Shown here: positions 9,222 to 62,037 of the stretch, in pieces | Numbering within the stretch: position 1 is the first letter of the stretch | Layout: each line of letters begins with the position of its first letter | Assembly: GCF_004010195.1 (NCBI RefSeq) | Contig: NC_057752.1 | Coordinates: 15,581,031 to 15,645,030, forward strand | Direction of reading: 5' to 3' | From: Chiloscyllium plagiosum | Lineage: Eukaryota | Length of the DNA: 64,000 nucleotides | Made by a program: the position numbers and the translations under genes | Notes under the pieces: generated by a model | The model's database searches: none | What the model was told of the DNA's origin: nothing | What the model saw: only the letters and a program-made list of their open reading frames with translations

Positions 9222-9288
9222 CAGGCAAACCGAGTGCAGCTATTGCAACATAGAATATCTTCCTGACAACTCGAACTGTTTGATGCAT
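9222..9288 (-). pseudogene. Orphan coding exon 1 of a GPR139-like receptor (MHQTVRVVRKIFYVAIAALGLP-G|gtaag); no exon 2 in the window
   Basis: 67 nt with intact ATG and GT donor. Homologous to 38399-38465 and 61971-62037. Intron homology continues to ~7446 and is then replaced by Gypsy DNA. Confidence 0.8.
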
Positions 9289-10579
9289 TTTCTGAGTCAA
9301 AAGTTCAATTACTTTGTGCTGCAAGTAATCTCTCTGATTCAGACTGGGAAAAAGATGCTTATGTTATACCCTGCAGGAGCTGCAATGGGAATCTGTGGTT
9401 GCAAACTTTTTCCAGTTGTTTATTTTCCAAAGAATTCACCAAGAAAGATTACGACAAGTGAGTTAAATCCCTAGTGTTGGAGGATATTGAGCAATCTGTT
9501 TTGGAGGGCTCTGCAGGTCTCTTGAGATGAAGAAATTCCATGTTGCCAATCTTAGGCTCAGAACTAACCGAAACTTATTCAACGATAGGTCAATGATCTT
9601 CAGCTTCAATCTTTCCGTCCCAAATTCAAAGACCATCAATTTCAGATCCTAACCACTGCCCCGTTAAAGGTATGTGTTGTATTAGGACACTATTTCATTC
9701 ACTGCCATTCAGTATGTCCCCGTATCTTTGCTGAATTTCCCCCAACTGATTTCACTCATTGTGGATCTCTCACTGTTTCTCTTACCTTTTTGAGTCTCTG
9801 CAACACCCCATCCCTGTAAAGTGGCATCTCTGTAACATTTCTCACCCCTACACATTCTCTGAAACGCTTTGATGAGTCGCGTTTCCCAGAACGTGAAACA
9901 AGTGGCTGGATTTACACACCCACTGGATGTGTCAAGTGTTGTGAAATGTCAGTTCTTCATCTCATACATTGTATATTCTTCCTTCAGACTTATCTCAATA
10001 TTTAAACCAATGAGACGTCTAAACTTTCCTGAATTTTGTTCAGTCCAGTTCATTGGCGATGTTCCCTTCCCTTCCAGGAATTTACTGTCCCCTTTCAAGT
10101 TATCGAATCGGTGTGGATATGAAGCATATTCAGCGACTGTCATTTGTAGCTTCATTTCACTTTCTTATCCCTTCTAGAACGACTACACCCCAGAGTTCTG
10201 AAGGAGACAGCTGGGGAGATTGTGTAGGCATTGGTGGTGATCTTTCAGGAATCACTGGGGTCATGGGGGTTCTCAGAGGACTGGAAGATGGCTAATGTGA
10301 CCCCTCCTTTAAGAAGGGATGGGGCAGAACACGGGAACCGACAGACTGGTTCGCCTGACCTTGATTACTGGTCTGCTTTCAGAGTACATTATGAACCATA
10401 GACCCACAGAAATGATACAGCACAGAAGAGGTCCATTGGCCCCATCTTGTACTGACACAACGACACCCAGACACTCTTTCTAATCCCATCATCCGACACA
10501 CATCCCATCGCCCGACAGGTTACAACACCTATAGTGCAGATCCAGGTACATTTAAAAGAGTTTATTGACTCTGCCTTTC

Positions 10580-10990
10580 CTGCCTCCATCTAGGGCCCCA
10601 AACAGTCCTTCCAGGTGAGACAGAGGTTCACCTGCCTCTCTTCCAACCTAGTTTGCTGCAACAGGTTCTCCTGAGGTCATCTTCTCCACATCAGGGAGAC
10701 CGAACGCAAACTTAGGGAACGGTTCGCTGAGCATTGCAGCCAGGCTCGCAGGGGGCGAACGAACCTCCCAGACATCGCCCATTTCAATTCCCCCAACCAC
10801 TCCCTTTTCCACATGACCATCCTTGACCTCCTTCATTGTCAAAACAAACCACAGCTCCAACTGGAGGAACAACCTTATCTTCCACCCGAGCACCCTCCAG
10901 CCCAGAGGACTCAACGTTGAGTTCTCCTATTTCAGATAACATCCCTCCCCATCACACGATTCCATTCCTAGCCCTTCCCCATCCCTTCCA
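10580..10990 (+). mobile_element. Penelope-like element GIY-YIG endonuclease remnant
   Basis: Hand translation: FQVRQRFTCLSSNLVCCNRFS*GHLLHIRETERKLRERFAEH...AHFNSPNHS...LEEQ.LIF...LQPRGLNVEFSYFR. Confidence 0.8.
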
Positions 10991-11055
10991 CTGCCCCCGG
11001 CCACCACCCAAATTCATTCATTTTGAAAAAAATATTGTTTGTGGTTTTCACAAAT

Positions 11056-11990
11056 GACTTGGATGTGGAGGTGGAAGGGTGGGTTAGTAAGTTTTCCGCT
11101 GACATGAAGGTTGGTGGAGTTGTAGATACTTTTGGAGGGCTGTTGTTAGTTGCGATGGTACATTGACAGGATGCAGAGCTGGGCTGAGAAGTCGCAGATG
11201 GAGTTCAATCCTGAAAAGTGTGAAGTGATTCACTTTGGTAGGTTGAATTTTAATGCAGATTACAGGTTTAAATGCAGGATTCTTGGCAGTGTGGAGGAAT
11301 AGAGGGATCTTGGTGTCTGTGTCCATAGATCCCTCATATTTGCCAGCCAAGTTGATAGGATTGTAAAGAATACATATGGCCAGTTGGCTTTCATTCACAG
11401 GGGGATTGAGTTGAAGAAACACGAGGTAATGCTGCAGCTGTATGGAGCCCTGGTTAGACCATACCTGTAATATTGTGTCCACTTCTGGTCGCCTCATTAC
11501 AGGAAGGATGCAAAGCTTTAGAGAGGGGTCAGAGAGATTGACCAGGTTGCTGCTCAGACAGAGGGCATGTCTTATGAAGAAAGGTGGAGGCACATCAGGA
11601 TTTTCTCATTGGAGTGAAGAAGGATGAGCGGTGACCTGATAGAGGTGTACAAGATCATGAGAGGCATAGATAGAGTGGATAGCCAGAGACGTTTTCCCAA
11701 GGTGGAAATGGATGTCAAAGGGGAATAATTTTAAAGTGGTTGGAGGAAGGTATAGGTGAGATATCAGAGGTAGGTATTTTACACAGAGAGTGGTGGGTGT
11801 GCGCAGAATTCACTGCCAGTGGTGGTCATCAAGTCAGGTACATGAGGGATACTTAAACAACTTGAAGCACATGCAAGATAGTAAAATGAAGGGTGTGTAG
11901 GTTACTCCGATCTTCGAGTAGGATAAAAGATCGGCTAAACTTTGAGGGCCGAAGGGCCTGTACTATTTTGGACTGTTCCATGTTCTATGT
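11056..11990 (+). mobile_element. 5'-truncated CR1 LINE (RT C-terminal part and 3' UTR)
   Basis: QMEFNPEKCEVIHFG, RDLGV and WSPHYRKD motifs, plus a tgttctatgttc tail. Confidence 0.9.
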
Positions 11991-12191: not shown

Positions 12192-15100
12192 TTTTGCAGC
12201 AGAGAACGGCGGGTGCTGGGCGGAAGTGAAGTCGAAGCGCAAACCCAGTCGGGAAGGTAAGTGATTGTTATTTAAGAACTTACCTCGACGCCAATGGCCG
12301 TTTTGCAGCAGAGAATGGCGGGTGCTGGGCGGAAGTGAAGTCGGAGCGCAAAGCCGGTCGGGAAGATAAGTGATTGTTATTTGAGTGGGTGTGTTCTCGA
12401 CCCCAGGTCCTACAAAGTAGGGCCACCCTCCCATCCTCCTCCTCGAACCTAAATTAAAAGTCCACAAACTTGCCCCAAAAAGAGGGTCCAAGGAAGTTCC
12501 TGTGGAGTGAAGAGTGAGGCTTTAGCCCAGGCGTCTTTCACAAGGAGGTTGAGTGAAGTGATTACGCCATAGTTGAAGAGGGTGAAGACATGACTGCCAA
12601 GCTGGTTCAGTGTGCTATGTGCTTGATGTGGGAGGTCAACGACTCTGGTGTGTCTGGCTCGTATAAGTGTGGAAAGTGTGTGCACGTTCAGCTACTGACA
12701 GAGAATTTTGCAGCACTGATGAAATAACTCGAGGACCTTAGGCTCATCCGAGAGAACGAGATCTTTATGGACAAGACTTTCAGTGAGGTTATTACACCGA
12801 CCATACCAGAAGAGAGCAGACAATGAGGAAGGCAGAGAGGAGGCAGGTGCAAGAGACCCCGGGGGAAGTACCTGTCAGGAACAAGTTCAATCTTTTGGAA
12901 ACAGACACATGACACTGGCAGTCCGCGAGGCGGCCAGGTCTGTCAATCAAACGTTGGCGTGAGGCAGAGCGGAAGAGTCGGACATCGCACAGAGTCGTGG
13001 TAATAGGGGACTCCACAGTGAGAGGAACAGACCGGGGTTTTTGTGGCAGCAGGGTGGACTTAAGAATGGTGTGTTGCCTTCCTGGTGGCAGGGTTAAAGA
13101 CATCACAGACAAAGTGCAGGAAATCCTCAAGGACGAAGGTGAAGAGCCAGAGGTGGTAGTACATTTCGGCACAAATGATGTCGGGAAGAAGAGGAGGAAC
13201 ATACTACAGCGGGACTTCGGAGAACTAGGAAGAAGGCTGAAAAGCAGGACGTCCAGGGTGGTTATCTCCGGTTTGCTTCCAGTTCCTTGGGCTGGTGAGG
13301 CCAAAAACAGGGAGATAATGGACTTAAACGTGTGGCTGGGGAACTGGTGGTGCAGGAAGCAAGGATTTAAATTCTTGGATCACTGGGGTATGTTTTGTGG
13401 TAAGCATAAATTATGCAAGAGATCCGGTTTGCACCTTAATAGGTTGGCGACCAGCGTTCTGGCAGACAGGTTTGCTATTGCAACACAGCTGCGTTTAAAC
13501 TAAGTAGCGGGGGGGGGGGGGGGGGGCGTGGTGGCGGGGGAAGGGACACGCTGGATGTTGAAGGGAAATTGAAGGGAAAGTTAGAACAAGGGAAGTCAAA
13601 CACAACTGTATCAATGAAGCAGAAAACTCAAAAAGGGATCATGCTGTAAGGCTGAGTGAAACAAGATTTGATGGGAAGGGTGAGGGCAGTAACAAATTAA
13701 AAATACTATATATGAATGCACGAAGCATTAGGAATAAGATGGATGAGCTTGAGGCTCTTTTGGAAATTGGCAGATACGATATTGTGGGTATAACTGAGAC
13801 GTGGCTTCAAGTGGACAGGGCCTGGGAAATGAATATTCAAGGCGACACATGCTATCGTAAGGACAGACTGACAGGCAGAGGGGGTGGGGTGGCCTTGTTG
13901 GTAAGGGATGATATTCAGTCCCTTGCGCGGGGGGGCCTAGTATCAGGGGATGTAGAGTCAGTATGGATAGAGCTGAGAAATTCTAAGGGTAAAAAGACCC
14001 TCTTGGGAGTTATCTCCAGGCTCCCAAACAGTAGTCTGGATGTCGGATGTGAGTTGAATCAGGAGCTGAAATTGGCCTGTCACAAAGATGTTACTACAGT
14101 TGTTATGGGGATTTCAACATTCAGGTAGACTGGGAAAATCAAGATGGTATTGGACCACAAGAAAGAGACTTTGTGGAGTGCCTCCGAGTTGGATTCTTAG
14201 AACAGCAACTGCTTGAGCCTAACAGGGAGAAGACAATTCTGGATCTGGTATTGTGCAACGAACTAGAATTGAACAGGGACCTCAAAGTGAAGGAGCCATT
14301 GGGAAGTAGTGACCATCATACAATAAGCTTCAATCTGCAATTTGAGAGGGAGAGGGTACAATCGGAAGTGACAATATTTCAGTTGAATAAAGGGAACTAT
14401 GGAGCTATGAGGGAGGAGCTGGCCAAAGTTCAATGGTGCATTACCTTAGCAGGGATGACAGTGGAGGAACAATGGCAGATATTTCTGTGTATAATGCAGA
14501 AGATACAGGATCAGTTCATTCCAAGAAGGAAGAAAGATCCTACGAGGAGGCATGGGCGGCCGTGGCTGACGATGAAGTTAAGAAACATATAAAGTTAAAA
14601 GAGAAAAAGTATAACATAGCAAAGATAAGTGGGAAAACGGAGGACTGGGAAGCCCTTAAGAAGGAAATACGCAGAGAAAAAGTGAGGCACGAAGGTAAAC
14701 TGGCCAAAAATATAAAGGAGTATAGTAAAAGCTTTTTTTAGGTATGTGAAAGGCAAAAAAATGGTTAAGACTAATATTGGGCCCTTGAAGACAGAAACAG
14801 GGGAATATATTACAGGGAACAAAGAAATGGCAGAAGAATTGAATTGGTACTTCAGATCTGTGTTCACTGGGGAAGACACAAGCAATCTCCCTGAGGTAAC
14901 AGTGGCTGAAAGACCTGAATTGAAGGGAATTTATATTTGCCAGGAATTGGTGTTGGATAGACTGTTAGGTCTGAAGGTTGATAAGTCCCCAGGGCCTGAT
15001 GGTCTACCAGAGGACACAGCTTAAAAATACGGGGTAGACCATTTAGGACAGAGATGAGGAGAAACTTCTTCACCCAGAGAGTGGTGGCTTTGTGGAATGT

Positions 15101-15699: not shown

Positions 15700-17830
15700 T
15701 TTCAAATGTTAGTATTGTCGTGCTGCAGAATAACTTGATTGAAGCTATTTCAGGCAGGAGATCATCACTCCAATCAGTTCCAGAAGAAGTGCTAGGACGT
15801 GCAATTCATGGTGACTGGAGAAGTTCTCCATTATGGAGAGTGAGGTTAGAGTGTCCAGTCAAAATTGGAGAAGTGGTGGCAGGAGTACTAAAGAAACTCT
15901 TGTCTCCAGGAATGCAACTTATCCTTCATAATGATCTGACTGGTCACAGGTAGGAGTGCTGCCTACTGTGGTTGAAAGGCCACTGGAAAATCAGGCAACT
16001 GAGGTATTACAGGAAGTGTACTCTGGGACTTTTCCTGACTGTGTGATAACAAGGTCACAAAGTGACCTGTCGAAACAGGAGGAGAAATCAGAGAATACAG
16101 ATAAGGAAGTTGAAGTAGAATTATCAGACAACACATTTGATCGAATGATTGACACAAAACCATTTCAGGTGGAGGAAAACGTAGATATTTTGAGCTCAGA
16201 GAAATTAACGGAGTTACACCAGAAAGTTTTAAAACTGAAGCTATTGTCTCAAAAACGGGCACAGAAGAAGAACTTGAATATATTCCTGAACGTTACTATC
16301 TTAACAAGGATGTCTCGATGTGGAAATGGAGATCAGCACCTACTCAGGCAGTTTGGAAATGCCATAAGTTTATCAAGTTGTATTGCTTGTGGTTATCAAA
16401 ATGAGATGTTGCGAGCAGCAGATGAATTGCCAGTAGGAGGTCATTTAGGGGTAGGAAAACCTCAAGGTAAACTATAAAATCATTTTTACTAGCCTCGACT
16501 GCATAAGGATGAAAATGAATTTTGCTACACATGTCATGTGCATAAGTTTGCACCCACTTCTGCATTGCAGGAACCTTTTACAGGGGACTTAATTAATTGT
16601 GTAGGTCCCCTACCCAAAACAAAAAGTTGGAATCAGGATTCGTTAACAAAAATGGATGTGTCCTCTCGATTTCTAGAGGTTGTCCCATAACACATGATCA
16701 CAGCTAAAAGGATTGTAGAGGAGTTACTCAAATTGTGCAATCGATATGGAGTACCCACAGAGATAGAAGAAGGCCAGGCATCAAGTTTGGCATCAAAATT
16801 ATTCAAGGAAGTCATGGATAGCTTCGGAAAAAAAAACTTCAAATCTATTGCATACCATCCATAATCACAGGGGGTGCGAGAAAGGAGGCATCAGATACTA
16901 AAGACCATGTTGAGGGCTTACAGCAAGACTATTCAGATGATTGGGATAAAGGAATTCCATTTGTATTTTTTGCCATCAGAGATGCTCCAAATGAATTGAC
17001 CAAATTCAATCCATTTGAATTAGTTTTTGGGCACGGGGTGCGATGAATGCTAAAATTGATTAAAGAGAAGTCAGAGTTTAGAGACTACATACTTGAACAA
17101 TGTGCCAAGTTTTAGGGAACGGTTAAATAGAGTGGGACAGTTGGCTACACAGCATTTAAAAGTATCACAGCAAACAATAAAACAGGAAGCAGGCAAGAAA
17201 ATCAAAACTTGCAAATTCGCTCTCGGATTTGGTGTTAGTTTTACGTCCAGAGTTAGGTGAACGTTTAATAGCAAGGTTTAATGGACATTATCCAGCCAAA
17301 AGGAGATTGAGTGAGGTGAACTATTTGATACGGACTCCAGTCAGGAAGAAATCACACAGAATGCGTCATGTGAATATGTGCACAAGGTATTTTGACAGGG
17401 AAGGAAATCAAAAGGAGACTGTGTTATTGGTTACTACACAGAGTGAAGAACCAAGTTCAAAGGATTCTGAATTGGGCATTCCTCAAATTATATTGGATTA
17501 TGAAGTATGTTGAAATAAGCTGGGAAGTACTAACCTAAATATGCATAATGTGTGTATAGTTAAACCTGTTCGATTAAGCAAAATCCTTATTGGCATAATC
17601 CTATAAAGATGACCCAAGTTCAAAAGGAGATTGATCGCATGCTCCAAAACAACATAATAGAAGTAAGTTCCTGTGAGTGGAGCTCACCATGGTAATGGTG
17701 CAAAAACCAGATGGTATCCAAGGGTTATGTGTGGGCCATCAGAAAGTCAATGCAGTTATAAAGTCTAATTCAAATCCAATTCCATGCTTTGAAGACTGTG
17801 TTGAAAAGCTGGGGCAAGCAACCTATATGG
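15700..17830 (+). mobile_element. Degenerate Gmr1-like Gypsy fragment, order PR-INT-RT(start)
   Basis: RVRLECPVKIGEVVAGV...LHNDL, GGHLGV (integrase zinc-binding region), HVNMCTRYFDRE, then MVQKPDG...KVNAV. Truncated by a Penelope-like element. Confidence 0.85.
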
Positions 17831-18008: not shown

Positions 18009-18725
18009 NNNNNNNNNNNNNNNNNNNNNNNNNNNNNNNNNNNNNNNNNNNNNNNNNNNNNNNNNNNNNNNNNNNNNNNNNNNNNNNNNNNNNNNNNNNN
18101 NNNNNNNNNNNNNNNNNNNNNNNNNNNNNNNNNNNNNNNNNNNNNNNNNNNNNNNNNNNNNNNNNNNNNNNNNNNNNNNNNNNNNNNNNNNNNNNNNNNN
18201 NNNNNNNNNNNNNNNNNNNNNNNNNNNNNNNNNNNNNNNNNNNNNNNNNNNNNNNNNNNNNNNNNNNNNNNNNNNNNNNNNNNNNNNNNNNNNNNNNNNN
18301 NNNNNNNNNNNNNNNNNNNNNNNNNNNNNNNNNNNNNNNNNNNNNNNNNNNNNNNNNNNNNNNNNNNNNNNNNNNNNNNNNNNNNNNNNNNNNNNNNNNN
18401 NNNNNNNNNNNNNNNNNNNNNNNNNNNNNNNNNNNNNNNNNNNNNNNNNNNNNNNNNNNNNNNNNNNNNNNNNNNNNNNNNNNNNNNNNNNNNNNNNNNN
18501 NNNNNNNNNNNNNNNNNNNNNNNNNNNNNNNNNNNNNNNNNNNNNNNNNNNNNNNNNNNNNNNNNNNNNNNNNNNNNNNNNNNNNNNNNNNNNNNNNNNN
18601 NNNNNNNNNNNNNNNNNNNNNNNNNNNNNNNNNNNNNNNNNNNNNNNNNNNNNNNNNNNNNNNNNNNNNNNNNNNNNNNNNNNNNNNNNNNNNNNNNNNN
18701 NNNNNNNNNNNNNNNNNNNNNNNNN
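18009..18725. other. Assembly gap (717 N)
   Basis: Run of Ns between the inverted repeats. Confidence 1.
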
Positions 18726-19793: not shown

Positions 19794-20187
19794 TCACCCA
19801 GTCAGCACTGATCCTGTGGCAAATCCTCCCACCGGGGAGGGCCCAATCATTTAGGCTGGCACGGTGTCTCAGTGGTTACCACTGCGACCTCAAAGCACCA
19901 GGGACCCGGTTTTAATTCCAGCCTCAGGCCAGTGTGTGTGTGGAATTTGCACATTCTCCCTGCATATATGTGGGTTTACAGCAGATTTCGTCACCCAGTC
20001 AGCACTGATCCTGTGGCAAATCCTCCCACTGGGGAGGGCCCAATCATTTAGGCTGGCACGGTGTCTCAGTGGTTACCACTGTGACCTCAAAGCACGAGGG
20101 ACCCGGTTTTAATTCCAGCCTCAGGCCAGTGTGTGTGTGGAATTTGCACATTCTCCCTGCATATATGTGGGTTTACAGCAGATTTCG
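19794..20187. repeat. 197-bp tandem duplication including a SINE head
   Basis: 19794-19990 and 19991-20187 differ at about 3 positions. Confidence 0.95.
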
Positions 20188-20686
20188 TCCCACAATACAA
20201 AGATGTGCAAGTTCGGTTAATTTTTTATGCTAAATTGCCCATTGTGTTCAGAGATGTGTAGGTTAAGTGCATTAATCAGGGATTAATGTAGCGTCATAGG
20301 GTAGGGTAATGGGTCTGGATTGGTTACTCTTGAGAGGATCGTTGTGGACTTTTTTGACCAAATGGACTGTTTCCACTCTGTAGGGATTCTATGATGAAAA
20401 CACGGGAGGGGGGTACTTTGAGATATTTTTGAACGAAGAATGTCTCAGTTGAATTTGTTCATCTCAAGAGAGCTTCAGATCTGTCCAAAATGTCTCCATC
20501 GCCAGCGAGTTAACTCGGCTGTCGTAACCTTTGTTTGTGAATTCTGTAGAAAATAATCAACTCTAAAATGTTATAAACCCATTTTCCCCTCGCAGTACCT
20601 GTAGGGTATAAAATAAGGGTGTTAATCCCGCTCTGAATCAGTGAGATTATTTGCAGCACGAAGTGATTGATCTCTTCACTCAGAAA

Positions 20687-22477
20687 ATGTATCTACAAAT
20701 CCAAACGGTTAGGAACATATTCTACGTTGCAATAGCTGTACTCGGTGTGTCTGATAAAGGTCTGTGATTGTTGAGAGTAAGGTTCTTGTGATGCAGTGGT
20801 CGTGTCCCAATCTCTGAACTAAAGCAGGCCTGGGTACAAGTACCCCCTATTCCCCATGTGTTTCTCACATCTCAGTGCAAGTTGATTAAAAGTGCCTCGA
20901 ATTGTTGATGTTGCATGAGTCAACATGTTTGAACAATTACTGTCTTGGGGAGGTTATTGTTGTACCGGATTCATTTGGAGGGAAACTGCTGAGGACAGGC
21001 TGAGTTGCACAGAAGCTCACTTAAAAAAAAACATTTTGAGTTGGCAGAACGCTTTGTAAGAACACATTTGATTGGATGGAAAGTTCTGAGGGTATGGTTG
21101 AGTTGGAGGAAGGTCGCTAAGAACAAGCTGAATTGGGGAGAAAGCTGCCAGAAGGAAGCTGCTCCGGATAATCTGTCCCAATTCAGAAACACAAAAGTTC
21201 CATGACATAAATTCAGAGTGAAACCTATTCCCGATTTTGAAAGAGTGACTGGAAGAAGATCAAAACATTATGTTTACTGAAGAATCTGTATGCATAAGAC
21301 TTTGTGGAAAGGTGCATGTTTAGTAGCATAACCACATCACTATCTCACAGTGAATTTACTGGCACTTGTGATTTCTATCAAAGGCAAGTGAGGAATCTCC
21401 CCATGCACCACATCCTACCTGGTCGCCATGGCAAAAGCGAATCTACTGTACATTATCCTTGAGGTCGGACTGTATGGGATTAAGAAATATTATTTCCAGA
21501 GGAATTTCTTGGATGTGACGACTGTCTGCAGAGTTCACTATACCCTGCGCCGTGCTGCCACCGATTGTTCTGTCTGGTTCACCGTCACTTTTACCTTTGA
21601 TCGATTTGTTGCCAGAAGTTGAAAACGAAATATTGCACCAAGCAAACGGCGACAATGATTCTAGCAACAACAGGCATTCTGCTCTGTTTCCAAAATATTC
21701 CCACCTACTTCAATTATGAAGCTATACGCATGATTAACAATGTCGAGTGGTACTGCACCAGCAGTGGATCATAATATAAAGATCCACATGGAGAGGATTC
21801 AATAGGTTTGAAAAGGTCTTAACTCAAATGCTCCCATTTGCTTTAATTCTTTTGATCAACATTCTGACAGTCAGTCACATTTAGTGGCCAGTCGGGCCAG
21901 TAGATTAGATGACTTACAGTGTGGAAACAGGCTCTTCGGGGTGTCCACACCGATCCGCCACCCACCCATAGCCCTACATTAACCCCTTTTAACCTAACAT
22001 TACGGGCAATTTAGCATGGCCAATTCACATAACCCGCACATCTTTGTGACTGTGGGAGGAAACCGCAGGAAACCCACGCAGACACGGGGAGAATGTGCAA
22101 ACTCCACAGTCAGTCGCCTGAGTCGGGAATTGAACCCGGGTCTCTGGCGCTGTGAGGCAGCAGAGCTAACCACTGTGCCACCGTGGTTAGCACCGTAATC
22201 GACTGAGGGATCAGAGCAAGGGGCAGAATCATTGTGACCCAGAGACGGATATCCAGTAGTTTCATCCTTCTATGTTGTGTTACCTTTTCAATTGCTTTCG
22301 TATTTATTGGATGAATATTCTGAAAATATATTCCAATATGTTGTGTATATGCTGCGGGATATAAACTGCTGCACAAACGCACTTATTTATGTAGCAATAC
22401 TACCCAAGTTCAGAGAAAAGTTCACAAACGCGTTGATGTTTCCTTTGAAGTAAACTACTCAATGTAAGCATCAATAA
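20687..22477 (+). pseudogene. GPR139-like GPCR pseudogene (exon 1 20687-20753, exon 2 21351-22477)
   Basis: Exon 1 MYLQIQTVRNIFYVAIAVLGVS with donor GT>AT. TGA at 21389. 10-bp deletion after DRFVA. SINE insertion at 21899-22193. Deletion of the ESRRKSIILLFA segment. Confidence 0.92.
21899..22193 (-). mobile_element. HE1-like SINE inserted in the pseudogene coding region
   Basis: TAGATTAGAT tail and tRNA-like head. Interrupts the ASRA|RK-encoding segment. Confidence 0.85.
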
Positions 22478-33944: not shown

Positions 33945-35210
33945 AAAGTTAATTCCCTTTGACACTACCCCCAAAAAACACCCCTGGGACAGGGACAGCA
34001 CCGAGTGAAATATAGAGCAAACATTCTGTACTCTTTGGAAACAGAAAAGTGCAGTTTCCTCAACTCTTCGGAACTCAAAGGTCCCTTGACTCTCTTGCAC
34101 TCAAAATAAAGTTCATTAGACTCGGCCAATAAAATAAGACATTCCCCCGACTGCATCCCCTCCAACTCTTGTGGTAGGGACAACAAAGTATTGAAATCGA
34201 GACACTTAATTTATTAGAAGTCATAGTAAACTAAAGATCAAATTCCCTTTGGCCAATCTCCATCAAACTCACTCGGGACAGGGACAACAAAGGGTAAAAT
34301 AAACCCATTGTTTCTTTCAGGAAGTCCAAAATGACAATAGAAAAAAATGAAAACAGCCCCGCCTGGCGTACTACACCAAAAATAAACGCAAATTCAAAAC
34401 GTTGAATGGAAATTTATATGATGGAACAGAAACTTTCGAAATGACAATATCATTTCCGAGGCTGATGATGCACTCCAGCTCCAACAGTGCCCATTGGTCT
34501 CAAAAGGCCTCGATCATGCTAGCGATGACCAGGTGCTCACTTTCTAGGGACACCCGAGGGAAGGTGTAACCGCGAAAGAGGGCCGCTCCTCGGCCTGCTG
34601 CCTGGACCTGTTCATACCCATCTTGGCCAGGCCCAGCAGCAGAGGCATGAGAAGGCCTGTAGACTTGTCCGCCCAACCCCACACCCGGTGTCAGTAGATC
34701 TGGAGGGTGGGATTGAAATGTAAACAACATTTAACAGCAACCTCTTTAAAAAAGACCGAACAAGAGTCTGCAAATGAACACACTATACATGCACATGGAA
34801 AACTGTCTCCTCCAGACCATGACCATGTGTGTGGTTCGACACCAGGTGAACTCCCTCAGTCTACGGTTGCTTGGGACAGCTGCGTGCAGCATTATCCCCA
34901 CCAGATCCCTGGTGTACGAGGGGAGGAACACTTTGTAGATTACGCTCCGATGGGGATCCAAGCCCACAGAGGGAAAAACATCATGCCAAGGCATGTCCAG
35001 GCAGTAGGCGGAGGTGTAGCAGTGGAGACTGTGCAGCATCAGCTCGTACAGATAACGCCTCTGTACAATTCAAAAGGGCATTGGGCGAATTTCCCTCAGA
35101 TAGCTCAGATTGTGGAACACCACGTCACGAGTGGGGGAGGGGCGTTATGGGGAATGGGGATGATATCCAGTTAAAAATGGACAGGGGTCAGAGTTCTATC
35201 TCCTTTCTTT
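33945..35210 (-). mobile_element. Tx1/L1-clade LINE 3' portion (ORF2 C-terminus and 3' UTR)
   Basis: LPSYTRDLVGIMLHAAVPSNRRLREFT...LHFNPTL...LLGLAK...FRGY...RVSLESEH. Confidence 0.75.
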
Positions 35211-35459
35211 CTCCAGAGGACCCTCTGTGACACTAATTGTTCCCCATTTATTCATGTTCATCTATTGTTCTTGATGCAGTCATCTCTGGTGTCATTTAAA
35301 TGTGTTGTTTAATGGCATCCTTGTGTTAATACTCCGAGTACCATTTTCGTCATCACTAACATTAGACAGATTTGATCCTCCAGAAACTTTCTTTTCCTCA
35401 TTCATCCAGCAGTCACTGTTATCCATTCCCCTTCACATGCTGTGGCATTACCATTTGTT

Positions 35460-36337
35460 TTATTGAATAGTTCGCTTAAAAGGAAACATCAATGTGTTTA
35501 TGAACTTTTCTCTGAACTTGGATAGTGTTGCTACATAAATAAGTGTGTTTGTGCAGCAGTTTAGATCCCGGAGCATATTGGCAACATATCGGAATATATA
35601 TTCAGAATTTTTATCTAATACTGGATCTAATGTATTAAAATATTTCAAAAGGTACCACATCCATAGAAGGATGAAACTACTGGATATCGCAAAGAGTAAA
35701 ATAATTGACTTTCTTCTGCTCTCCATCTCTGGGTCACAATGATTCTGCCCCTTGCTCTGATTCTTCAGTCTCTTACGGGCTCGACTGGCCACTAAAATGT
35801 GACTTACTATCAGAGTGTTGATCAACAGAATTAAAGCAAATGGGAGCATTGGAGTTAAGACCTTTTCAAACCTGTTGAATCCTACCCGTATGGGATCTTT
35901 AGAATACGCTTCAGTATTTGTGCAGTACCACTCGACATTGTTAATGATTCGTTTAGCTTCGTACCTGAAGTAGGTGGGAATGTTTTTGAAACAGAGCAGA
36001 ATGCCCGTTGTTGCGAGAACCACTGTCGCAGTTTTCTTGTTGCAATATTTTGTTTTCAACTTCTGACAGCAAATGGCAACAAATCGATCAAAGGTAAAAG
36101 TGACGGTGAACCAGACGGAACAATCAGTGGCAGCACGGCGCAGGATATTGTGAACTTTGCAGACAGTCGTCACATCCAAGAAATTCCGAGGGAAATAATA
36201 GTCATTGATCCGATACAGTATGACCTCAAGGATAATGTATAGTAGATCTGCTGTTACCATGGCGACCAGGTAGCATGTGGTGCATGGGGAGATCCCACAT
36301 TTTCCTCTGAATAAAATCGCAAGTGCCAGTAAATTCA
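35460..36337 (-). CDS. Exon 2 of intact GPR139/GPR142-like class A GPCR (gene A, 314 aa with exon 1)
   Basis: Open frame to TAA. ADLL (TM2), C3.25, SVWFTVTFTFDRF (TM3), ECL2 WYC, LPF (TM5), FILLW (TM6), ANML..LNCCTNTLIY (TM7), SKFR (helix 8). Acceptor ctctcacag|TG. Confidence 0.93.
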
Positions 36338-36837
36338 CTGTGAGAGTGTGAATAAGAAGTAGATTATAAATTACAGAAAAAAAACTGTTCGCATTATCTG
36401 AGGACAAACCATTGAACAAAACAAATCAGCCATGACTTCAACAGGTTCCCAAGGTGCACAGATCAGGGTAAAATCAGGTTAAACAGGCATCAGTTAGAGG
36501 GTTGTAATGGACTGCTCACTGGAAGCAGGTCTGTGCTTTAATATTCCATTGAAGAATTGTGTGTCTGAAGCTGGAGAAGTCCAACTTTGGAGTAGACCCT
36601 CTGCCCCACCTGCTGCAACGTGTTATATTTCCTTTCTGTTGCAAAGTTGCTACCTGCAAATAAATACTCACTACCTTATTAGACAAACACTCTCAGTTGA
36701 GTGCTTGTCCTTCACGCGTCATGTTTTGTGGTCTTACCTCCTGGAGATCAGCCTTACTCTCCATTACATTTGACTCCACTCACAACTCCCCAGCCTCATT
36801 AACGAGCCCATCCTTTTTGGTAATTACGAAACGTTGG

Positions 36838-37170
36838 AGAAGCATGGTGACTCCGTGTTTAGCACTGTTGCTTCCCAGCGCTAGGGACCCGAGTTCGATT
36901 CCAGCCTTGGGTGACTGTCTTTGCGAGTTTGCACATCCTCCCTGTGTCTGCGTGGGTTCCTTTGCATGCTCCAATTTCCTCTCACAATCCAAGGATGTGC
37001 AAGTTCGGTGAATTGGCCTGGGTGCATTGCTCAAATTGTGCAGGGATGTGTGGATTAGTTGTGATGTTAGGGGTAAATATAGGGTGGTGAAATGGGTCTG
37101 GATAGGATACGCTTCGGAGGCCTCGTGTGGACATGTTGGTCTGAAGGGCCTGTTCCCACAGTTTAGTGTT
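36838..37170 (+). mobile_element. Old HE1-like SINE in the intron, shared with gene B (~60100-60430)
   Basis: tRNA-like head and gatgtgcaagttcggtgaattggcc body. Confidence 0.75.
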
Positions 37171-38398
37171 TCCAAAAAGGAAAAAAAAAAGTCAGGGATT
37201 TTGATTTCACTGTTATACTTGTGTCATCAGTGAGTCAAGTGCTTGTTGGTATATTACTGCACTAGACATCGGTTAGATTTCCCTTGATTCCTTCATACAG
37301 TTTGGCACGCAACTTCTATTTGAACTGTGTCTCTGTGATGAGACCCCAGTTGATGTGAGGGTGGATGACGGAGGAGAGCAGTGCAGATCTATTCCCACGG
37401 CTTCACATATCACCAAGTGAAATATAATTGCACAAGAATACACCCTATCAAGTTACATTTCACACAAAACGATCTGTCAAACAGGTTCCTCAGCAAACGC
37501 AATTGCTTGTTTGACATCAGGATTAAACATATTCAACAAGTATGACATCTTTGATTGACACGGAATTCAGGAATTCAGGGGAGTAAATGGTTATTGCAAT
37601 TATATGTACCAAAAAAATCTCTCCCACTCTCCCTCTCCACTTTCTCTACCTCTCTCTCACCCACTCTCTCTCTCTCTCGCTTCCTGTTCCCGAAAGAAGC
37701 AAAGAACAAACAGGTTCTCCTGAAGAGATGGAAAAATTCTGAAAGAATAGGCACAGTTTGACGAACAGATTATTTCTGAACACAAAATGAAAAGGTGTTG
37801 GATGCTCCACGACATTTGTTCTGTGTTTTTACACGTGTGGTCATGCCGCTCAACATGCATGTTTGATTATTTAGTCTTGTACATACAGATTCTTCAGAAA
37901 ATATGTTTTGGTTTTCTTCCAGTCTCGCCTTCAAAATAGGAAATAGCTTTCACTCTGAACTGAAGAATGGGATTTTTTGTTTCTGAATTGGGAGACATTA
38001 TACAGCTTCCTTACGGCAGCTTTCTCTCTAATTCAGTTTGTTCTAAGCAGCCCTTCCTACACCTCAATTATATCCTCAGAACTTTCCCTCCAATCTAGCG
38101 TGTTCTTGCAAGGTGTTCTGCCAACTCCATATTTTTAAAATAAGCTTCTGTTCAACTCAGCTTGTTCTCAGCAGATTCCCTCCAAATGAATCAAAGACCT
38201 CTCCAAGACAGTCACTGTTCAAAACATATTGACTTATGCAGCCTCAACAATTCCATACACGTGTAACCAACTTGCACAAAGATGTGAGAAACAAATGGGG
38301 AACAGGGGGTATATGTACCCAGGCCTGCTTTAGTTCAGGGGTAGGGACACTACCACAGCGCCACAAGAACCCGACCCTCAACAATCACAGACACTTAC

Positions 38399-38465
38399 CA
38401 GGCAAACCGAGTATAGCTATTACAATGTAGAATATGTTCCTGACCACTTGGATTGGTCGATGCAT
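38399..38465 (-). CDS. Coding exon 1 of gene A (MHRPIQVVRNIFYIVIAILGLP-G)
   Basis: aaaATG start and G|GTAAGT donor. The phase-1 join to exon 2 gives GLP-V-N and completes TM1. Total 945 nt, in frame. Confidence 0.88.
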
Positions 38466-38759
38466 TTTCTGAGTGAAGAGATCAATTACTTTGTGCTGTG
38501 TACTCTCTCTGATTCAGAATGGAATAAAGCCCCTTATTTTATTGTCTGCAGGAACTACCAGGGGAAAACTGTATTTGCAAAATTTTTAGATTTGATTATT
38601 TTCGGGAGAATTCACAAACAAGGATTATGACAGTCAAGTTAACTCCCTGGTGGTAGAGATATTTTGGACGGCTATGAAGCTCTCTTGAGATGAAGCAATT
38701 CAGGTGAGACATTCTTCAGTTCAAAGAAAGCTCAAAGTACTCCCGCCCAGCGTTTTCAT

Positions 38760-39720
38760 TATAGAATCTTTGCAGTGTGGAAACAGGCCAGCATCTGGCT
38801 CAACAAGTCCACACTGACCCACTCAAGAGTAACCCACCCCGACCCATTCCCCTATAACTCTTTCTTATTCCTGACGAATGCACCTAACTTACACATTGCT
38901 GAATAATATGGGGAAATTAGCATGGCCAATTCACCGAGCTTGCACATCTTTGAACAGTGGGTGGAAACCAGAGCGATTCCACACAGACACAGGGGGAATG
39001 TGCAAATTCCACACACAACAGTGGCCTGAGGCTGGAATTGAAACGGGTCCCTGGTGCTTTGAGGTAGCAATGTTAATCACTGAGCCACTGTGCCGCCCTA
39101 AATGATTGGGCCCACCCCGGTGGGAGGTTTTGCCGCAGGGTCTGTGCTGACTGGGTCAGATCAGCAGTAATGTGTCCAGTTTCCCTCGGCCAGATCAGCA
39201 ATAATGTGTCCAGTTCTGGTCGCCTTGTTATGGAAAGGATAAAATTAAGCTGGAGAGTGTTCAGAAAAGATTTACTGGGATGTTCCTCGGAATGGAAAGT
39301 TTCAATTGTAGGGAAGAAGCTGAATAGGCTGGGACTGTTTTCACAGGATCGCAGGAGGTTGAATGGTGACCTTATAATGTTTTGTAACATCATGACGTGT
39401 ATAAATGAGGTGAATGGAAGTTGTCTCTTTTCGCTCCAGTGGGCGATTTCCAGGTTAGGGGCATGTCTTTAATGTGAAAGGAGAAAGATTGAAAACAGAC
39501 AAGAGGGTATTATGCTTTGTGCACAGAACGAACCTCCAGAGAATTTGGTGGATGTGGGTACAGTTACAACATTTAAAAGACATTTAGATAAATACATGAA
39601 TGTGAAATGGAGGGATATGGGCCGAGGCCGGGAAGATGGGACTAGTTTAGTTTGGAATCATGGTCAGCATGGACTGGTTGGACCAAAGGGTCTGTATGAT
39701 TCTCTGACTCAATGACTCTA
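38760..39720. mobile_element. SINE (minus) plus CR1 3' fragment (plus) block shared by four GPCR copies
   Basis: Homologous blocks at 19145-20395 and 53218-54055 (inverted) and at 62330-63320. Absent from the orphan copy at ~9560. Confidence 0.8.
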
Positions 39721-39981
39721 TGATTGAGCTGATTAGTTAATGCTCTTCAGATGCAATCTTTCTTAACCACACTCCAAGACCATTGCTCTGTTAAAGGAAT
39801 GTTTTGCATCAGGACACACTTTCTTTCACTGCCATTCAGTGTGTATCTGTGTCTTTAATGAACTTTCCCCAACGTCTTCGGCTCATTGTGGATCTCCCTC
39901 TGCTTCGCTTACCTTTTTGAGTCTCTGCTACACGCTATCTCTGGAAAATGGAATCTCTGTAGCATTTCTCACCCTACACAC

Positions 39982-41195
39982 TGTGATGATGCTGTTTTGT
40001 CCTTAGTTTTTTTTTTAAGAGTGTTCGTAAAGGCAGAGATCTCGAGGAGTCTGGGGAGTTGAACAGAATAACAATGGAAGGGGATCGGCCAGTTCTCCCA
40101 GATCAGGCTTTCTCCAGTTCTTTTTTGCTGCAGCATTCACAAGATGTCGGAGTTCGGAAATGTTGCAAGTTTCAGTAAAGGATTCCTCTGACTTTCTCTG
40201 AAATCACACTCTGGATTTTGTTCTCTCCTGCCTGTAAGAATTTGTGTTTCTATTTACCTTTCTGTATCGGGCTGTGCTTGTTGGATGTTACTGTATTGGA
40301 ACAGCTGGTCAGTTAATTTCCTGTATCGGGTCACTAAGGTTTGTTTCGAACCAGGCCAGACTCCCCTCAAAATATTTTAAGGAAGTAGCCTAGACCCTAA
40401 CATTTTCTTATTATCAAGACAGATGTGAAGTGGCTATACCAGGTATGATGCAGCTGGTCAAACTACTCGGTTTTAAGCAAAACTTATTTAACTTAAGCAC
40501 GACCGTTGAAGCACAAATTAAGGAAGGCGGAATTTAGAATAACTTAACGATGGGCCAAATACTGGCAAATGGGACGAGGTTGGGTGAGGAAATCTGGTCG
40601 GCATGGACGTGTTGGACCTAAGGGTGTGTTTCCGTGATGTACACCTCTGTGACTGCACTGGATAACTTACCATATATACTCGAGTAATAGTCGGATTTCT
40701 TTGACTACTGTTTACGGTTAAATCTATGGGATCGATTGTGACATGGTTGCTACTTTTGAGTGGCTGAAATTCATTCCGTATCATTAGCAGAAATCAAATT
40801 GATCTCTCAACAAATAAAGAGAAAAAAACAATGAATTACAGTAATGTTGAAAACCCAGAGAGGAGGGGAACAGCCTGTGGACTAGAAGACCTGGAGCTGA
40901 GCACGACTGCGGGCACACTGACTCTGAAATGTTGATCTGTTCTCTGTGAAGGAGTCAGCTTGACCTCTACACAAAATATAAAAAATATTCTAGATTTTTA
41001 GCCAGAAATACGTGTCAACTTTTACATGTGATCGATTATTACTTGAGTATATATGGTAAACGACCCGCTAGAGTAACTATTATTAATTAACTGTTCCAAT
41101 GCAGTAATATCTCATGAACACACCCCTTCGCAAAAAGGAAAATGCAAAAGTACCAAGGACAAAATAATCTTTTTAAAGTGAGAGCATGGACACAC
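39982..41195. mobile_element. Two oppositely oriented Gypsy LTRs (39982-40341 plus; 40342-41195 minus)
   Basis: TGTGA start at 39982 and TGT...ggccagactcccctcaaaat at 40342. On the minus strand a PPT 'aagggggggatg' at ~41196-41207 precedes the LTR. Confidence 0.65.
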
Positions 41196-54349: not shown

Positions 54350-55095
54350 ATGCATCTACCAGTCCAAATGGTCAGGAAGATATTCTGTGTTGCAATAGCT
54401 ATACTCGGTTTGCCTGGTAAGGGTCTGTGAGTGTTGAGAGTAGGGTTGTTATGATGCAGTGGTCGTGTCCCGATCCCTGAACTTAATCAGGCCTGGATAC
54501 AAGTACCCCCTGTTCCCCATGTGTTTCTCACATCTCAGTGCAAGTTGATTAAAAGTGTCTCGAATGTTGCATGAGACAAATTGTTTTGAACAATTGCTGC
54601 CTTGGAGAAGTTATTGTATCGGATTCATTTGGAGGAGATCTGCTGAGGACTAGCTGAGTTGCACATCAGCTCACTTAAAAAACATTTTGAGTTGGCAGAA
54701 CGCTTGGTAAGAACACACTGGATCGGAGGGAAAGTTCTGAGTATAGTTGAGTTGGAGGAATGCCTGCTAAGAACAAGCTGAATTGGAGAGAAAGCTGCCA
54801 TAAGGAAGCTACTCCGGATAATATCTCCCAATTCAGAAACAAAAAATCCCATGACATAAATTCAGAGTGAAACCTATTCCCGATTTTTAAAGAGTGACTG
54901 GAAGAAGACCAAAACATTATATTTACTGAAAAATCTGTATGAAGAAGACTTGGTGGCAAAGGTGCATGTTTAGTAGCACAGTCACATCATCTCTCACAGT
55001 GAATTTACTGGCACTTGAGATTTTATTCAAAGGCAAGTGTGGAATCACCCCACGCACCACACCTTACCTGGTTGCCATGGCAAAATTGGATCTAC
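54350..55095 (+). pseudogene. Truncated GPR139-like GPCR pseudogene (exon 1 54350-54416; exon 2 start 55000-55095)
   Basis: MHLPVQMVRKIFCVAIAILGLP|VNLLALEILFKGKCGITPRTTPYLVAMAKLDL, then a CR1 tail. The rest of exon 2 was not found. Confidence 0.9.
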
Positions 55096-57479: not shown

Positions 57480-58490
57480 TATACGTTAAAAAAACCTTTC
57501 CCCCGACTACATCCACTCCAAACACACTTGGGGTTGGACAACAAGGGGTTAAATAGAGTCACTCAACTCATTAGAAGTCAAAGTAAACTAAACCTCAAAT
57601 CCCCTTGGGTCAACCCCATCAATCTCACTTGGGACAGGGACAACATGAATCCTTGTTTCTTTCAGAAACTCCAAAATGCAAATGGGAAAATAATTACATT
57701 GGAACAGAAACATACTAAATGACAATACCATCTTCCAGGCTGGTGATGTACTCCAGCTCCAACAGTGCCCACCGGTCTCTAAATGCATCGACGATGCTGG
57801 TGATGACCAGGTGCTCCCTCTCTAGGGACACCCGAGGGCAGATATAACTGTGAAAGAAGGGCAGACAGTCAGGAGTGACAAGCCCCTCCTCGGCCTGCTG
57901 CCTGGACCTGTTAATGGCCATCTTGACCAGGCCCAGGAGCAGAGACATGAGAAGGCCTGTAGACTTGTCCGCTCATCCCCACACCTGGTGTCAGTAGATC
58001 AGGAAGGTGGGACTGAAATGTAAACAACATTTTAACAGCAGCCCCTTCAAAAACCGAACAAGAAGCTGCAAATGGACACACTGGAAATACACATGGAAAA
58101 CCGTCTCCTCCAGGCCACAGAACGTGTGTGTGGTCTGACACCCGGTGAACTCCCTCAGCTGACAGTTGTTTGGGACCACTGCAGGCAGCATTCTCCACAC
58201 CAGATCCCTGGGGTAAGAGGGGAGCACCCCTTTGTCGATGACCGTCCGACAGAGGGAAAACGTCACACCAAGGCACGGCTGGGCAGTGGGCTGAGGCGTA
58301 AAAGTGGAGAATGTGCAGCATCAGCCCGTACAGACAACGCCTCAGTGCTGTTCGAAAAGACACCGGGAGGATTTCCCTCAGACAGCTCAGATTGTGGAAC
58401 ACCCTGTCACGGGGGAGGGTACGGGCTGTGGGGCTGATGTCGAGTTCCAGACAGACAGGGGTCAGAATACTGTCTCCGTTCTTGCTCCAG
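57480..58490 (-). mobile_element. Tx1/L1-clade LINE 3' portion
   Basis: LPSYPRDLVWRMLPAVVP...FCGLEETVFHVYFQC (zf-RVT-like) and LLLGLVKMAINRSRQ. Paralogous to 33945-35210. Confidence 0.8.
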
Positions 58491-58727
58491 AGGACATTGT
58501 GTGACACTGATCGTTCCCCATTTATTCATGTTCATCCATTGGTCTTCATGCAGTAGTCTCTGGTGTGACTTAACTGTGCTGTTTAATGGCATCCTTTTAT
58601 TAATGCTCTGAGTACCATTTTCATCATTGCTAATATTATACACATTTGCTCCGACAGAAACTTCCTTTTCCTCCATCCTATTTCTGTTATCCATTCCCCT
58701 TCACATGGTGTGGCATTACCATTTGTT

Positions 58728-59617
58728 TTATTGATGCTGACATTGAATAATTCGCTTAAAAGGAAACATCAACACGTTTGTGAACTTTTCTCTGAACTTG
58801 GACAGTGTTGCTACATAAATAAGTGTGTTTGTACAGCAGTTTATATCCCGGAGCATATTTGCGACATATCTGAAGACATATTCAGAATTATTGTCTAATA
58901 ATGGATCTAAAGTATTAAAATATTTCAAAAGGTACCACATCCATAGAAGGATGAAGCTACTGGATATTGCGAAGAGTAAAATGATAGACTTTCTTCTGCT
59001 CTCCATCTCTGGGTCACAATGATTCTGCCCCTTGCTCTGATCCCTCAGTCTCTTATGGGCTCGACTGGCCACTAAAGTGTACCTGACTGTCAGAGTGTTG
59101 ATCAACAGAATTAAAGCAAACGGGAGCATTGGAGTTAAGACCTTTTCAAACCTATTGAATCCTACCCGTACGGGATCACTATAATATGCTTCAGTATTGG
59201 TGCAGAGCCACTCGACATTGTTAATGATTCGTTTAGCTTCGTACCTGAAGTAGGTGGGAATGTTTTTGAAACAGAGCAGGATGCCTGTTGTTGCTAGAAC
59301 CACTGCCGCAGTTTTCTTGGTGCAATATTTCATTTTCAACTTCTGGCAACAAATGGCAACAAATCGATCAAAGGTAAAAATGACGGTGAACCAGGCAGAA
59401 CAATCAGTGGCAGCACGGCGCAGGGTGTAGTGAACTCTGCAGACAGTCGTCACATCCAAGAAATTCAGAGGGAAATAATAATCATTGATCCGGTACAATA
59501 TGACCTCAAGGATGATGTACAGCAGATCCGCTGTCACCATGGCAACCAGGTAACACGTGGTGCATGGAGACATTCCACATTTTCCGTTGAATAAAATCCC
59601 AAGTGCCAGTAAATTCA
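58728..59617 (-). CDS. Exon 2 of intact GPR139/GPR142-like class A GPCR (gene B, 318 aa with exon 1)
   Basis: Open frame with the same motifs as gene A. About 89% identical by hand count (~34 differences in 314 aa). Acceptor ctcccacag|TG. Confidence 0.93.
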
Positions 59618-60980
59618 CTGTGGGAGAGTGAAGGGAAAGGGAATTAGAAATTACAGAAAAAATGTTCGCAGTTTCTGAGGACAGTCCATTTAACAAAACA
59701 AATTAGCCATGACTTCAACAGGTCTGCAAGTTGGACAGATCAGAGTAAAGTTCAGGTTGAACAGGTATCAGTCGGAGCCACGTATCAGACTGCTCACCGG
59801 AAGCAGGTCAGTGGGGAATTGTGTGTCTGAAGCTGGAGAAGTGCAACTTTGGAGTAGACCCTCTGCCCCACCGGCTGCAACGTGTTCAATTTCCTTTTCT
59901 GTTGCAAAGTGTGTTACCTGCCAAGAAATACTCACCACCCATTAGACTCACCCTCTGAATTGGGTGTCTGTCCTTCACACGTCATATTTTGTGGTCTTAC
60001 CTCCTTTAGATCAGCCTTACTCACCGCTACTTTTAACTCTACCCGCAACTCCCCAGCCTTATTAACGAGCCCATCCTTTTTGGTAATTTACAAAACTTTG
60101 GAGCAGCATGGTGGCTCTGTGTTTAGCACTTCCCAGCGCTAGGTACCCGAGTTTGATTCCAGTCTTGGGTGACTGTCTTTGCGGAGTTTGCACATCCTCC
60201 CTGTGTCTGCGTGGGTTCGTTTGTATGCTCCAATTTCCTCTCACAATCTAAAGATGTGCAGGTTCGGTGAATTGGCCTTGCTGCATTGCTCAAAGTGTGC
60301 AGGGATGTGTGGGTTAGTTGCGATGTTAGGGGTAAATATCGGGTGGAAATGGGTCTGGGTGGGTTACATTTTGTAGGCTTGGTGTGGACATGTTGGTCTG
60401 AAGGGCCTGTTCCCACATTATAGGGTTTCCAAAAAGGAAAGAAAAATCAAGGATTTTGTTTTCACTTTCATACTTGTTTCAGCAGTGAGTCAAGGGCTTG
60501 GTCATATATTACTGTACTAGACATCGGTTAGATTTCCCTTGATTCCTTCATACAGTTTGGCACACAACTTCCATTTGAACTGTGTCTCTGTGATGAGATG
60601 CCAGTTGATGTGAGGGTGGATGCTGGTGGAGAGCTCTGTAGATCTGTTCCCACGGCTCCACATACCACCAAGTGAAATGTAACTGCACAAGAATATATCC
60701 TATCAAGTTACATTTCACACAAAACTATCTGTCAAACAGGTTCCTCAGCAAACACAATTGCTTGTTTGCCATCAGGTTAAAACATGTTCAACAAGTATGA
60801 CATATTTGATTGACACGGAATTCAGGAATTCAGGGAACTAAATGGTGATCGCAATTAAATGTCCCAAAAAACACTCTCTCCCGCTCTCCCTCTCTCCCTG
60901 TCCTGCTTTCTCTCCCTCTCTCTCACCCACTCTCTCTCTCTATTTTCCTGTTCCCGACAGGAGCAAAGAACAAACAGGTT

Positions 60981-61297
60981 TAGATTAGATTAGATTACTT
61001 ACAGTGTGGAAACAGGCCCTTCGGCCCAACAAGTCCACACCGACCCGCCGAAGCGCAAGCCACCCATTACCCTACATTTACCCCTTTACCTAACACTACG
61101 GGCAATTTAGCATGGCCAATTCACCTGACCTGCACATCTTTGGAGTGTGGGAGGAAACCGGAGCACCCGGAGGAAACCCACGCAGACACGGGGAGAATGT
61201 GCAAACTCCACACAGTCAGTCGTCTGAGTCGGGAATTGAACCCGGGTCTCTGGCGCTGTGATGCAGCAGTGCTAACCACTGTGCCACCGTGCCGCCC
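60981..61297 (-). mobile_element. Young full-length HE1-like SINE in the gene B intron
   Basis: (TAGAT)3 tail and clean A/B boxes. Empty site caggtt|ctcctg at ~37716 in gene A. Confidence 0.92.
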
Positions 61298-61970
61298 TTC
61301 TCCTGCAAGCATGGAGAAATTCTGAAAAAACAGGCACAGTTTGACGAACAGATTATTTCTGAACACAAAATGAAAAGGTGTTGGATGCTCCACAACATTT
61401 GTTCTGTGTTTCTACACGTGTGGTCATTCCACTCAACATGCATCTTTGCCTATGAAGTCTTGTACATACAGATTCTTCAGAAAATATTATGTTTTGATGT
61501 TCTTCCAGTCTCGCCTTCAAAATAGGAAATTTTTTCACTCTGAACTGATGAATGGGATTTTTTGTTTCTGAATTGGGAGAGATTATCCAGCTTCTTTATG
61601 GCAGCTTACTCTCCAATTCAGTTTGTTCTTAGCAGCCCTTCCTCCACCTCAATTATATCCTCAGAACTTTCCCTCCAATTTAGCGTGTTCTGCCAACTCC
61701 ATATTTTTAAAATAAGCTTCTGTGCAACTCAGCTTGTTCTCAGCAGGTTCCCTCCAAATGAATCAAAGACGTCTCCAAGACAGTCACTGTTCAAAACATA
61801 TTGACTTATGCAGCCTCAACAATTCCAGACACTTGTAATCAACTTGAACAAATATGTGAGAAACAAATGGGGAACAGGGGGTATATGTACCCAGGCCTGC
61901 TTTAGTTCAGGGATAGGGACACTACCACAGCGCCACAAGAGCCCGACCCTCAACAATCACAGACACTTAC

Positions 61971-62037
61971 CAGGCAAACCAAGTATAGCTGTTGCAATGT
62001 AGAATAAGTTCCTGACCATTTGGATTGGTCGATGCAT
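61971..62037 (-). CDS. Coding exon 1 of gene B (MHRPIQMVRNLFYIATAILGLP-G)
   Basis: aaaATG start, G|GTAAGT donor, phase 1. Total 957 nt, in frame with exon 2. Confidence 0.88.

Follow-up and report, generated by a model that had tools for sequence, protein, structure and literature searches.

The OR, TAAR, V1R/ORA, V2R, FPR and MRGPR receptor repertoires form tandem birth-and-death clusters with variable binding pockets, as does the receptor family described here, which differs from them in ancestry and matches Pfam 7tm_1 only. Five paralogous copies of this family lie in a 64,000-nucleotide stretch of the genome of the shark Chiloscyllium plagiosum (NC_057752.1, positions 15,581,031 to 15,645,030), hereafter called the window. 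In the available portions of the catshark literature, 8 OR or OR-like, 3 ORA, 3 TAAR, 2 TARL and 32 canonical V2R genes are reported (PMC11979771), and the catshark sets of the four known olfactory families are small (PMC11979771, PMC6368271), and a whale-shark paper, likewise available in part, states that G protein-coupled receptors (GPCRs) show a "relative paucity" in cartilaginous fishes (PMC8455134). In the accessible part of the study by Rinne et al. (2019), the orphan receptor GPR210, with three subtypes, stands beside GPR139 and GPR142 in coelacanth, gar and fishes, with few genes per GPR210 set and with neither sharks nor cartilaginous fish in that text (PMC6504862). The five copies are here assigned to a very large and diversified class A GPCR family of cartilaginous fishes, which is judged somewhat more probably than otherwise to be a chemosensory repertoire; the small size of the known olfactory families counts in favor of this reading.

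Six-frame translation and tblastn located five paralogous loci in the window, namely two intact genes, two pseudogenes and one lone first exon, and together with exon mapping they bore out the number, state and ends of the copies given in an earlier note made from the letters of this stretch. The parts of the five copies are as follows.

9222..9288, minus strand: copy A, lone first coding exon of 22 codons with an intact GT donor (exon-1 comparison)
20687..20753, plus strand: copy B (pseudogene), exon 1, with its ATG at 20687 and the donor GT changed to AT
21351..22477, plus strand: copy B, exon 2, with in-frame stops, 10-nucleotide and 35-nucleotide deletions, 1-nucleotide frameshifts and a short repeat inside
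about 21901..22185, minus strand: short interspersed repeat within exon 2 of copy B
35460..36337, minus strand: copy C, exon 2, from the end of transmembrane helix 1 (TM1) to the stop codon, intact (Pfam 7tm_1)
38399..38465, minus strand: copy C, exon 1; the spliced product has 314 residues
54350..54416, plus strand: copy D (pseudogene), exon 1
55000..55085, plus strand: copy D, exon 2 remnant of about 85 nucleotides, broken off in TM2 by a repeat
58728..59617, minus strand: copy E, exon 2, intact (Pfam 7tm_1)
61971..62037, minus strand: copy E, exon 1; the spliced product has 318 residues

Exon 2 of copy C and exon 2 of copy E match Pfam 7tm_1 above the cut-off (expectation values 3.7e-18 and 2.7e-14, respectively). 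The intron remnant of copy A extends to about 8486, and no trace of its exon 2 was found in bases 1..9300. From its many copies and from poly(A)-ended reads, we infer that the insert in copy B is a short interspersed nuclear element. The coding part of the first exon is 67 bases long in all five copies and ends at a phase-1 junction, in agreement with the identical two-exon layout proposed earlier; the intron lengths differ, however, being 597 nucleotides in B, 583 in D, 2061 in C and 2353 in E. An acceptor-like site lies 3 nucleotides ahead of the ATG in four of the five copies, so that there may be a non-coding 5' exon and "two-exon" is to be read as two coding exons. In B, C, D and E, a branch-point-like TRAY, a pyrimidine run and CAG are found within 3-26 nucleotides upstream of the ATG and may likewise point to such an exon. 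Copy E alone has an upstream open frame in which an in-frame ATG offers a possible 39-residue extension (62038-62154, minus strand), the corresponding frame being interrupted by stops or shifts in the other copies. AATAAA overlaps the stop codon in B, C and E (22473, 35464 and 58732), which are all the copies having a 3' end.

The class A motif residues N1.50, D2.50, R3.50, P5.50 and Y7.53 are kept in 98-100% of the family, and the DR of TM3, W6.48, P5.50, N7.49, Y7.53 and the cysteine C3.25 are kept in 99-100% of the family alignment; the family is one of class A (rhodopsin-like) GPCRs. With exon 2 of copy C as the query against protein clusters at 90% identity, 2,259 of 3,098 candidates reach an expectation value of 0.001 or less, and the best 120 of these 2,259, which were examined by species, all come from sharks or rays. 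Heterodontus accounts for 69 of these best 120 clusters, 39 of them on one 74.5-Mb contig, and the closest among the matches listed is a Stegostoma protein with 77% identity. The family thus has the large tandem arrangement with births and deaths that is typical of chemoreceptors. A profile built from 42 rows finds 130 clusters (50% identity) at expectation values of 1e-30 or less, and 17 of the 18 family representatives traced are chondrichthyan, including two from Callorhinchus milii. Since the chimaera members fall inside the family, the expansion likely began before the split of holocephalans and elasmobranchs. The earlier proposal of a lineage-expanded shark family therefore holds as to the expansion but not as to sharks alone, rays and a chimaera being included. 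In a DNA-like run from a close organism, the summed contig depth is about 197,000 on a stretch coding for TM3 as against 5-8 in the intron, a depth that fits many paralogues and is not a copy number; a metagenome scan for further loci gave 429 pattern matches, none of which was confirmed.

Most of the listed relatives carry the NCBI name "probable G-protein coupled receptor 139", so the family has already been annotated by machine, as the earlier note had allowed. The same names are one point in favor of the view that the copies are true GPR139 or GPR142 orthologues sensing L-Trp or L-Phe; in addition, human GPR139 (PDB 7vug, 9m42) is the top PDB match of the family profile (expectation value 7.6e-16), and W6.48 and N7.39 of GPR139 are kept in C and E. 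The scores of the same profile, however, are 181.7 bits for a salamander orphan receptor, 172.7 for a coelacanth protein, 111-120 for amphioxus, 95-105 for invertebrate-type rows and only 61.1 for human GPR139, and in a single-sequence comparison GPR139 (28.1 bits) is level with NTSR1 (27.7 bits). The identity between GPR139 and the family in a structural alignment is about 21%, and F109, H187, P243 and R244 of GPR139 are replaced. Because GPR139 scores 61 bits against 182 for the salamander orphan, the relatives named "probable GPR139", and the family members with them, are on these scores not GPR139 orthologues, as the earlier note had supposed, and orthology is very improbable. The copy number also differs from that of GPR139 and GPR142, with five copies in 64 kb here and the many Heterodontus clusters. 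A structure model (predicted local distance difference test score 77) has the expected helices and matches GPCR folds at TM-scores of 0.6-0.7; GPR139 was dropped as a singled-out fold match, ranking 43 in the fold search.

The scores and trees place an amphibian and sturgeon orphan receptor, seen once per species, rather than GPR139 or GPR142, as the nearest relative of the family, in place of the GPR139/142-like kinship assumed at first. In a quick tree of 100 rows, the family lies on one side of a branch with support of 87 and is sister to the amphibian/sturgeon clade (99); in a mixture-model tree of 39 rows, the support is 94/85 for the family and 100/99 for the family together with that clade. 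In both trees, two coelacanth/teleost lines and then amphioxus lie outside this pair. Partial representatives (87 of 148) and true GPR139 and GPR142 were left out of the trees, and the placement of the latter two is by score, which a long GPR139 branch could depress. An amphioxus query for true GPR139/142 returned nine rows, none of them from a vertebrate. The orphan (Pleurodeles XP_069092602.1 and relatives, also named "probable GPR139") has 31% identity to exon 2 of copy C, and a search with the salamander protein returned 25 rows consisting of 20 amphibian clusters from 20 species, one sturgeon and four chondrichthyans. It has in common with the shark family a short N-terminus, C3.25, KL..YC in intracellular loop 2 and DPEM..RR before TM6. 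The amphibian orphan, with one cluster per species in 20 amphibians, has a nearly invariant pocket and keeps P6.50, whereas the chondrichthyan branch is massively multi-copy, has a variable pocket and mostly lacks P6.50. Three bony-vertebrate lines, coelacanth among them, surround the shark family in the trees, resembling the three GPR210 subtypes, and the amphibian/sturgeon receptor likely belongs among the GPR210 orphans named by Rinne et al. (2019).

N1.50 is residue 24 in the family, so that about 6-10 residues precede TM1, in agreement with the N-terminus of about 10 residues reported earlier, whereas it is residue 44 in GPR139 according to the profile alignment and to the S62V mark in the available part of the structural paper (PMC8807744). 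The short N-terminus was considered as a sign of sensory specialization and rejected, since N1.50 lies at 23-28 in the amphibian, coelacanth, teleost and amphioxus relatives, making the feature ancestral; the observation in the earlier note stands and its sensory meaning does not. GPR139 is like the family in having no P7.50 and in W6.48, but it lacks C3.25 in the alignment, which the family keeps.

According to the accessible sections of the respective papers, F109, H187, W241 and N271 are important in GPR139 by mutagenesis (PMC5430874), the structure adds R244 to the pocket, and GPR139 signals mainly by Gq/11 (PMC8807744). C and E keep two of these five Trp/Phe pocket residues (W and N), with F109 changed to R, H187 to E and R244 to Y, and P6.50 is missing. 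Their pocket is charged, with R3.32, R3.33, D3.37, E5.42, K5.43, R7.42 and D7.43, and C and E would probably recognize similar polar ligands. In all 22 amphibian rows, F3.33, W6.48 and N7.39 are retained, position 6.51 is K and position 6.50 is P. The ancestor, on this reading a distant GPR139-related orphan, may accordingly have had a pocket like that of GPR139, suited to aromatic amino acids or peptides. The amphibian rows carry N at 2.50 and S at 1.50.

With 35 pocket positions fixed beforehand, which we take from general class A knowledge, 122 close paralogues show site rates of 1.25 for the pocket, 0.74 for the outer non-pocket positions and 0.35 for the inner face (p 0.026 and 4e-8), and the order is reversed in 22 amphibian rows (0.28, 0.67 and 0.75). 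This reversal, in which the pocket is fixed in the single-copy gene and fast in the expansion while the inner loops are conserved, is regarded as the strongest functional clue that the sequences offer. It is consistent with a scheme in which the chondrichthyan copies would have rewritten the pocket and retained one G-protein interface, separate copies reporting different small polar ligands through one pathway in candidate cell types such as olfactory, taste, solitary chemosensory and gut cells. The 122 rows contain 112 different strings of 12 pocket residues, a count that uses positions chosen post hoc and was not taken as evidence.

Several observations weigh against a chemosensory repertoire. 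C and E differ at 2 of the 35 pocket sites as compared with 34 of 314 residues overall, so that these two copies are probably near-redundant. The site-rate comparison, whose close-paralogue set is dominated by one species and which, working on amino acids, cannot tell positive selection from relaxation, is weaker in the other subfamilies: there, 47 rows give 1.21, 1.04 and 0.53, with a p value of 0.34 for pocket versus outer positions. P6.50 is missing in 122 of 122 close members, leaving signaling unproven; it is kept in 9 of the 47 other family rows and in 22 of 22 amphibian rows. The published Lhx2/Ebf composite has no exact match in the 300 nucleotides upstream of B, C, D and E. In one tissue-unlabelled RNA run, of which about 2% was read, none of 174 reads is 99% alike and none falls at the 3' end of copy E, and the catshark top-50 "brain and olfactory epithelium" list in the available part of that paper contains no GPCR gene (PMC11979771).

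C and E lie in duplicated units of about 6 kb, one of which is the following.

34422..40374, no strand assigned: duplicated unit around copy C, with 85-86% identity to 57700-64000 around copy E (self-comparison)

A DNA tree of the exon-1 region groups C with E and B with D, each at 100/99, with A separate, and together with the intron lengths this grouping points to duplication of an inverted pair, after which the B/D lineage decayed. The proteins of C and E are 89% identical, and their ratio of nonsynonymous to synonymous substitution rates (dN/dS) is 0.27 over 314 codons (Nei-Gojobori; bootstrap 0.16-0.44); restricting the comparison to 201 common codons gives 0.34 for C/E, and pairs that include pseudogene B reach 0.64-0.69. 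The C/E value shows that the intact copies are constrained: C and E are under purifying selection rather than near a ratio of 1, which the earlier note had named as the mark of neutral decay, and the birth-and-death turnover that it described is seen in the two intact and three broken copies and the local duplication.

The same region bears on a largely non-adaptive origin, in which repeats would have driven segmental duplications of an endocrine or neuropeptide receptor and left redundant copies under relaxed selection, many of them decaying. Three of the five copies are dead, self-matches cover 68% of the window, and reverse-transcriptase, endonuclease or GDSL-like domains occur in 5 of 10 tested intergenic frames, so that retroelement domains stand between the genes; the near-identical pockets of C and E and the non-significant pocket excess in other subfamilies fit this origin as well. 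It is nevertheless rather improbable, given the dN/dS of C and E and the fact that sharks, rays and a chimaera all have intact members, and relaxation alone would not give a pocket evolving 3.6 times faster than the inner face, with the opposite in the single-copy gene.

About 240 nucleotides upstream of the ATG are common to all five copies, and repeats begin beyond about -290.

38466..38701, minus strand: common upstream region, shown for copy C, candidate promoter or 5' untranslated region

The absence of the Lhx2/Ebf composite from the 300 nucleotides upstream of B, C, D and E weighs little, because mouse OR promoters themselves mostly lack it, as stated in the accessible text of PMC11643329. 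Two matches to the composite occur upstream of the lone exon A. A site at -100 in C and E, with one mismatch to what we take as the O/E motif, and TAATTG at -23 in A, C and E were considered as an olfactory promoter signal, but O/E-like and TAATTG sites occur in the window at 0.8 and 1.2 per kb, respectively, and as weak signals common in the window they were set aside. The change from TAATTG to TGAT in B and D suggests that a branch point, rather than a homeodomain-like site, may lie at -23.

Reads of four runs were compared with exon 2 of copy E only. Run X7 has no reads on this exon, X1 and X2 are DNA-like with intron pieces present, and in the RNA run X6 about 20 partial reads that stem from other loci fall on the TM3 stretch, beside one or two paralogue-like reads; the read results weigh neither for nor against expression. 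Of the X6 reads, 15 agree with the exon in the TM3 stretch alone (59334-59406) and then run into unrelated sequence absent from the window, and a transcript from elsewhere may carry a fragment of the receptor family.

Immune sensors combine tandem turnover, a variable pocket and a fixed inner face, and these features of the family would also fit an innate-immune or barrier-tissue repertoire which, like the FPR and MRGPR expansions, would sense microbial or damage-derived peptides or metabolites on leukocytes, skin or gut. The missing olfactory composite upstream of the intact copies agrees with this idea, and the whale-shark paper reports that cartilaginous fishes lack MAS1/MRGPR-type receptors, leaving such a role open (PMC8455134). 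No immune gene was found in the window, however, and GPR139 is mainly expressed in the brain according to the accessible text of PMC12208981, so that an immune repertoire is considered unlikely. The chemosensory reading can be carried further: the family may constitute an unrecognized major class of vertebrate olfactory receptors and, in sharks, rays and chimaeras, the main odor repertoire, which would have arisen from a GPR139-related amino-acid or peptide receptor and be far larger than the V2R set, a proposal that is put forward tentatively and is itself doubtful.

Between and beside the copies, the segment 5-702 shows an 81-83% match to the upstream flanks of C (40009-40707) and E (63635-64000), and from this likeness a further minus-strand copy may lie to the left of the window. 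A 197-nucleotide tandem duplication with a 98% match lies upstream of copy B (19794-20189), and 717 consecutive N that separate A from B (18009-18725) could conceal sequence. Decayed retroelement pieces with reverse-transcriptase matches, presumably of the long terminal repeat type, lie at 1262-5750, 15780-17830 and 41150-44460 and were duplicated together with the gene units; a decayed element resembling a long interspersed nuclear element carries GDSL-like and endonuclease domains (12913-15021, plus strand). Rfam and tRNA scans of the window found nothing.

An expanded GPCR repertoire is a known kind of system, whereas its chondrichthyan instance and ancestry appear to be undescribed. No description of the expansion was found in the literature searched, which lacks most subscription journals, and the GPCR passages of the catshark paper do not mention the family described here (PMC11979771). 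In the supplements of the whale-shark paper, as far as available, GPR139 has no entry and GPR142 is represented by one orthogroup (70 proteins, 35 taxa); the orthogroup OG0000365 (157 proteins, 12 taxa, 7tm_1, no human gene listed) may correspond to the present family (PMC8455134).

A GPCR family that has, in the top matches alone, dozens of distinct members to a species and that goes under one automatic name contradicts the picture of GPCR paucity in cartilaginous fishes whatever its role. If the family is olfactory, it would represent an independent origin of a vertebrate chemoreceptor class, with the single-copy amphibian gene as a tractable ancestor-like control, and if it is the main odor repertoire, it would upset the idea that a few dozen receptors serve the sense of smell in cartilaginous fishes.

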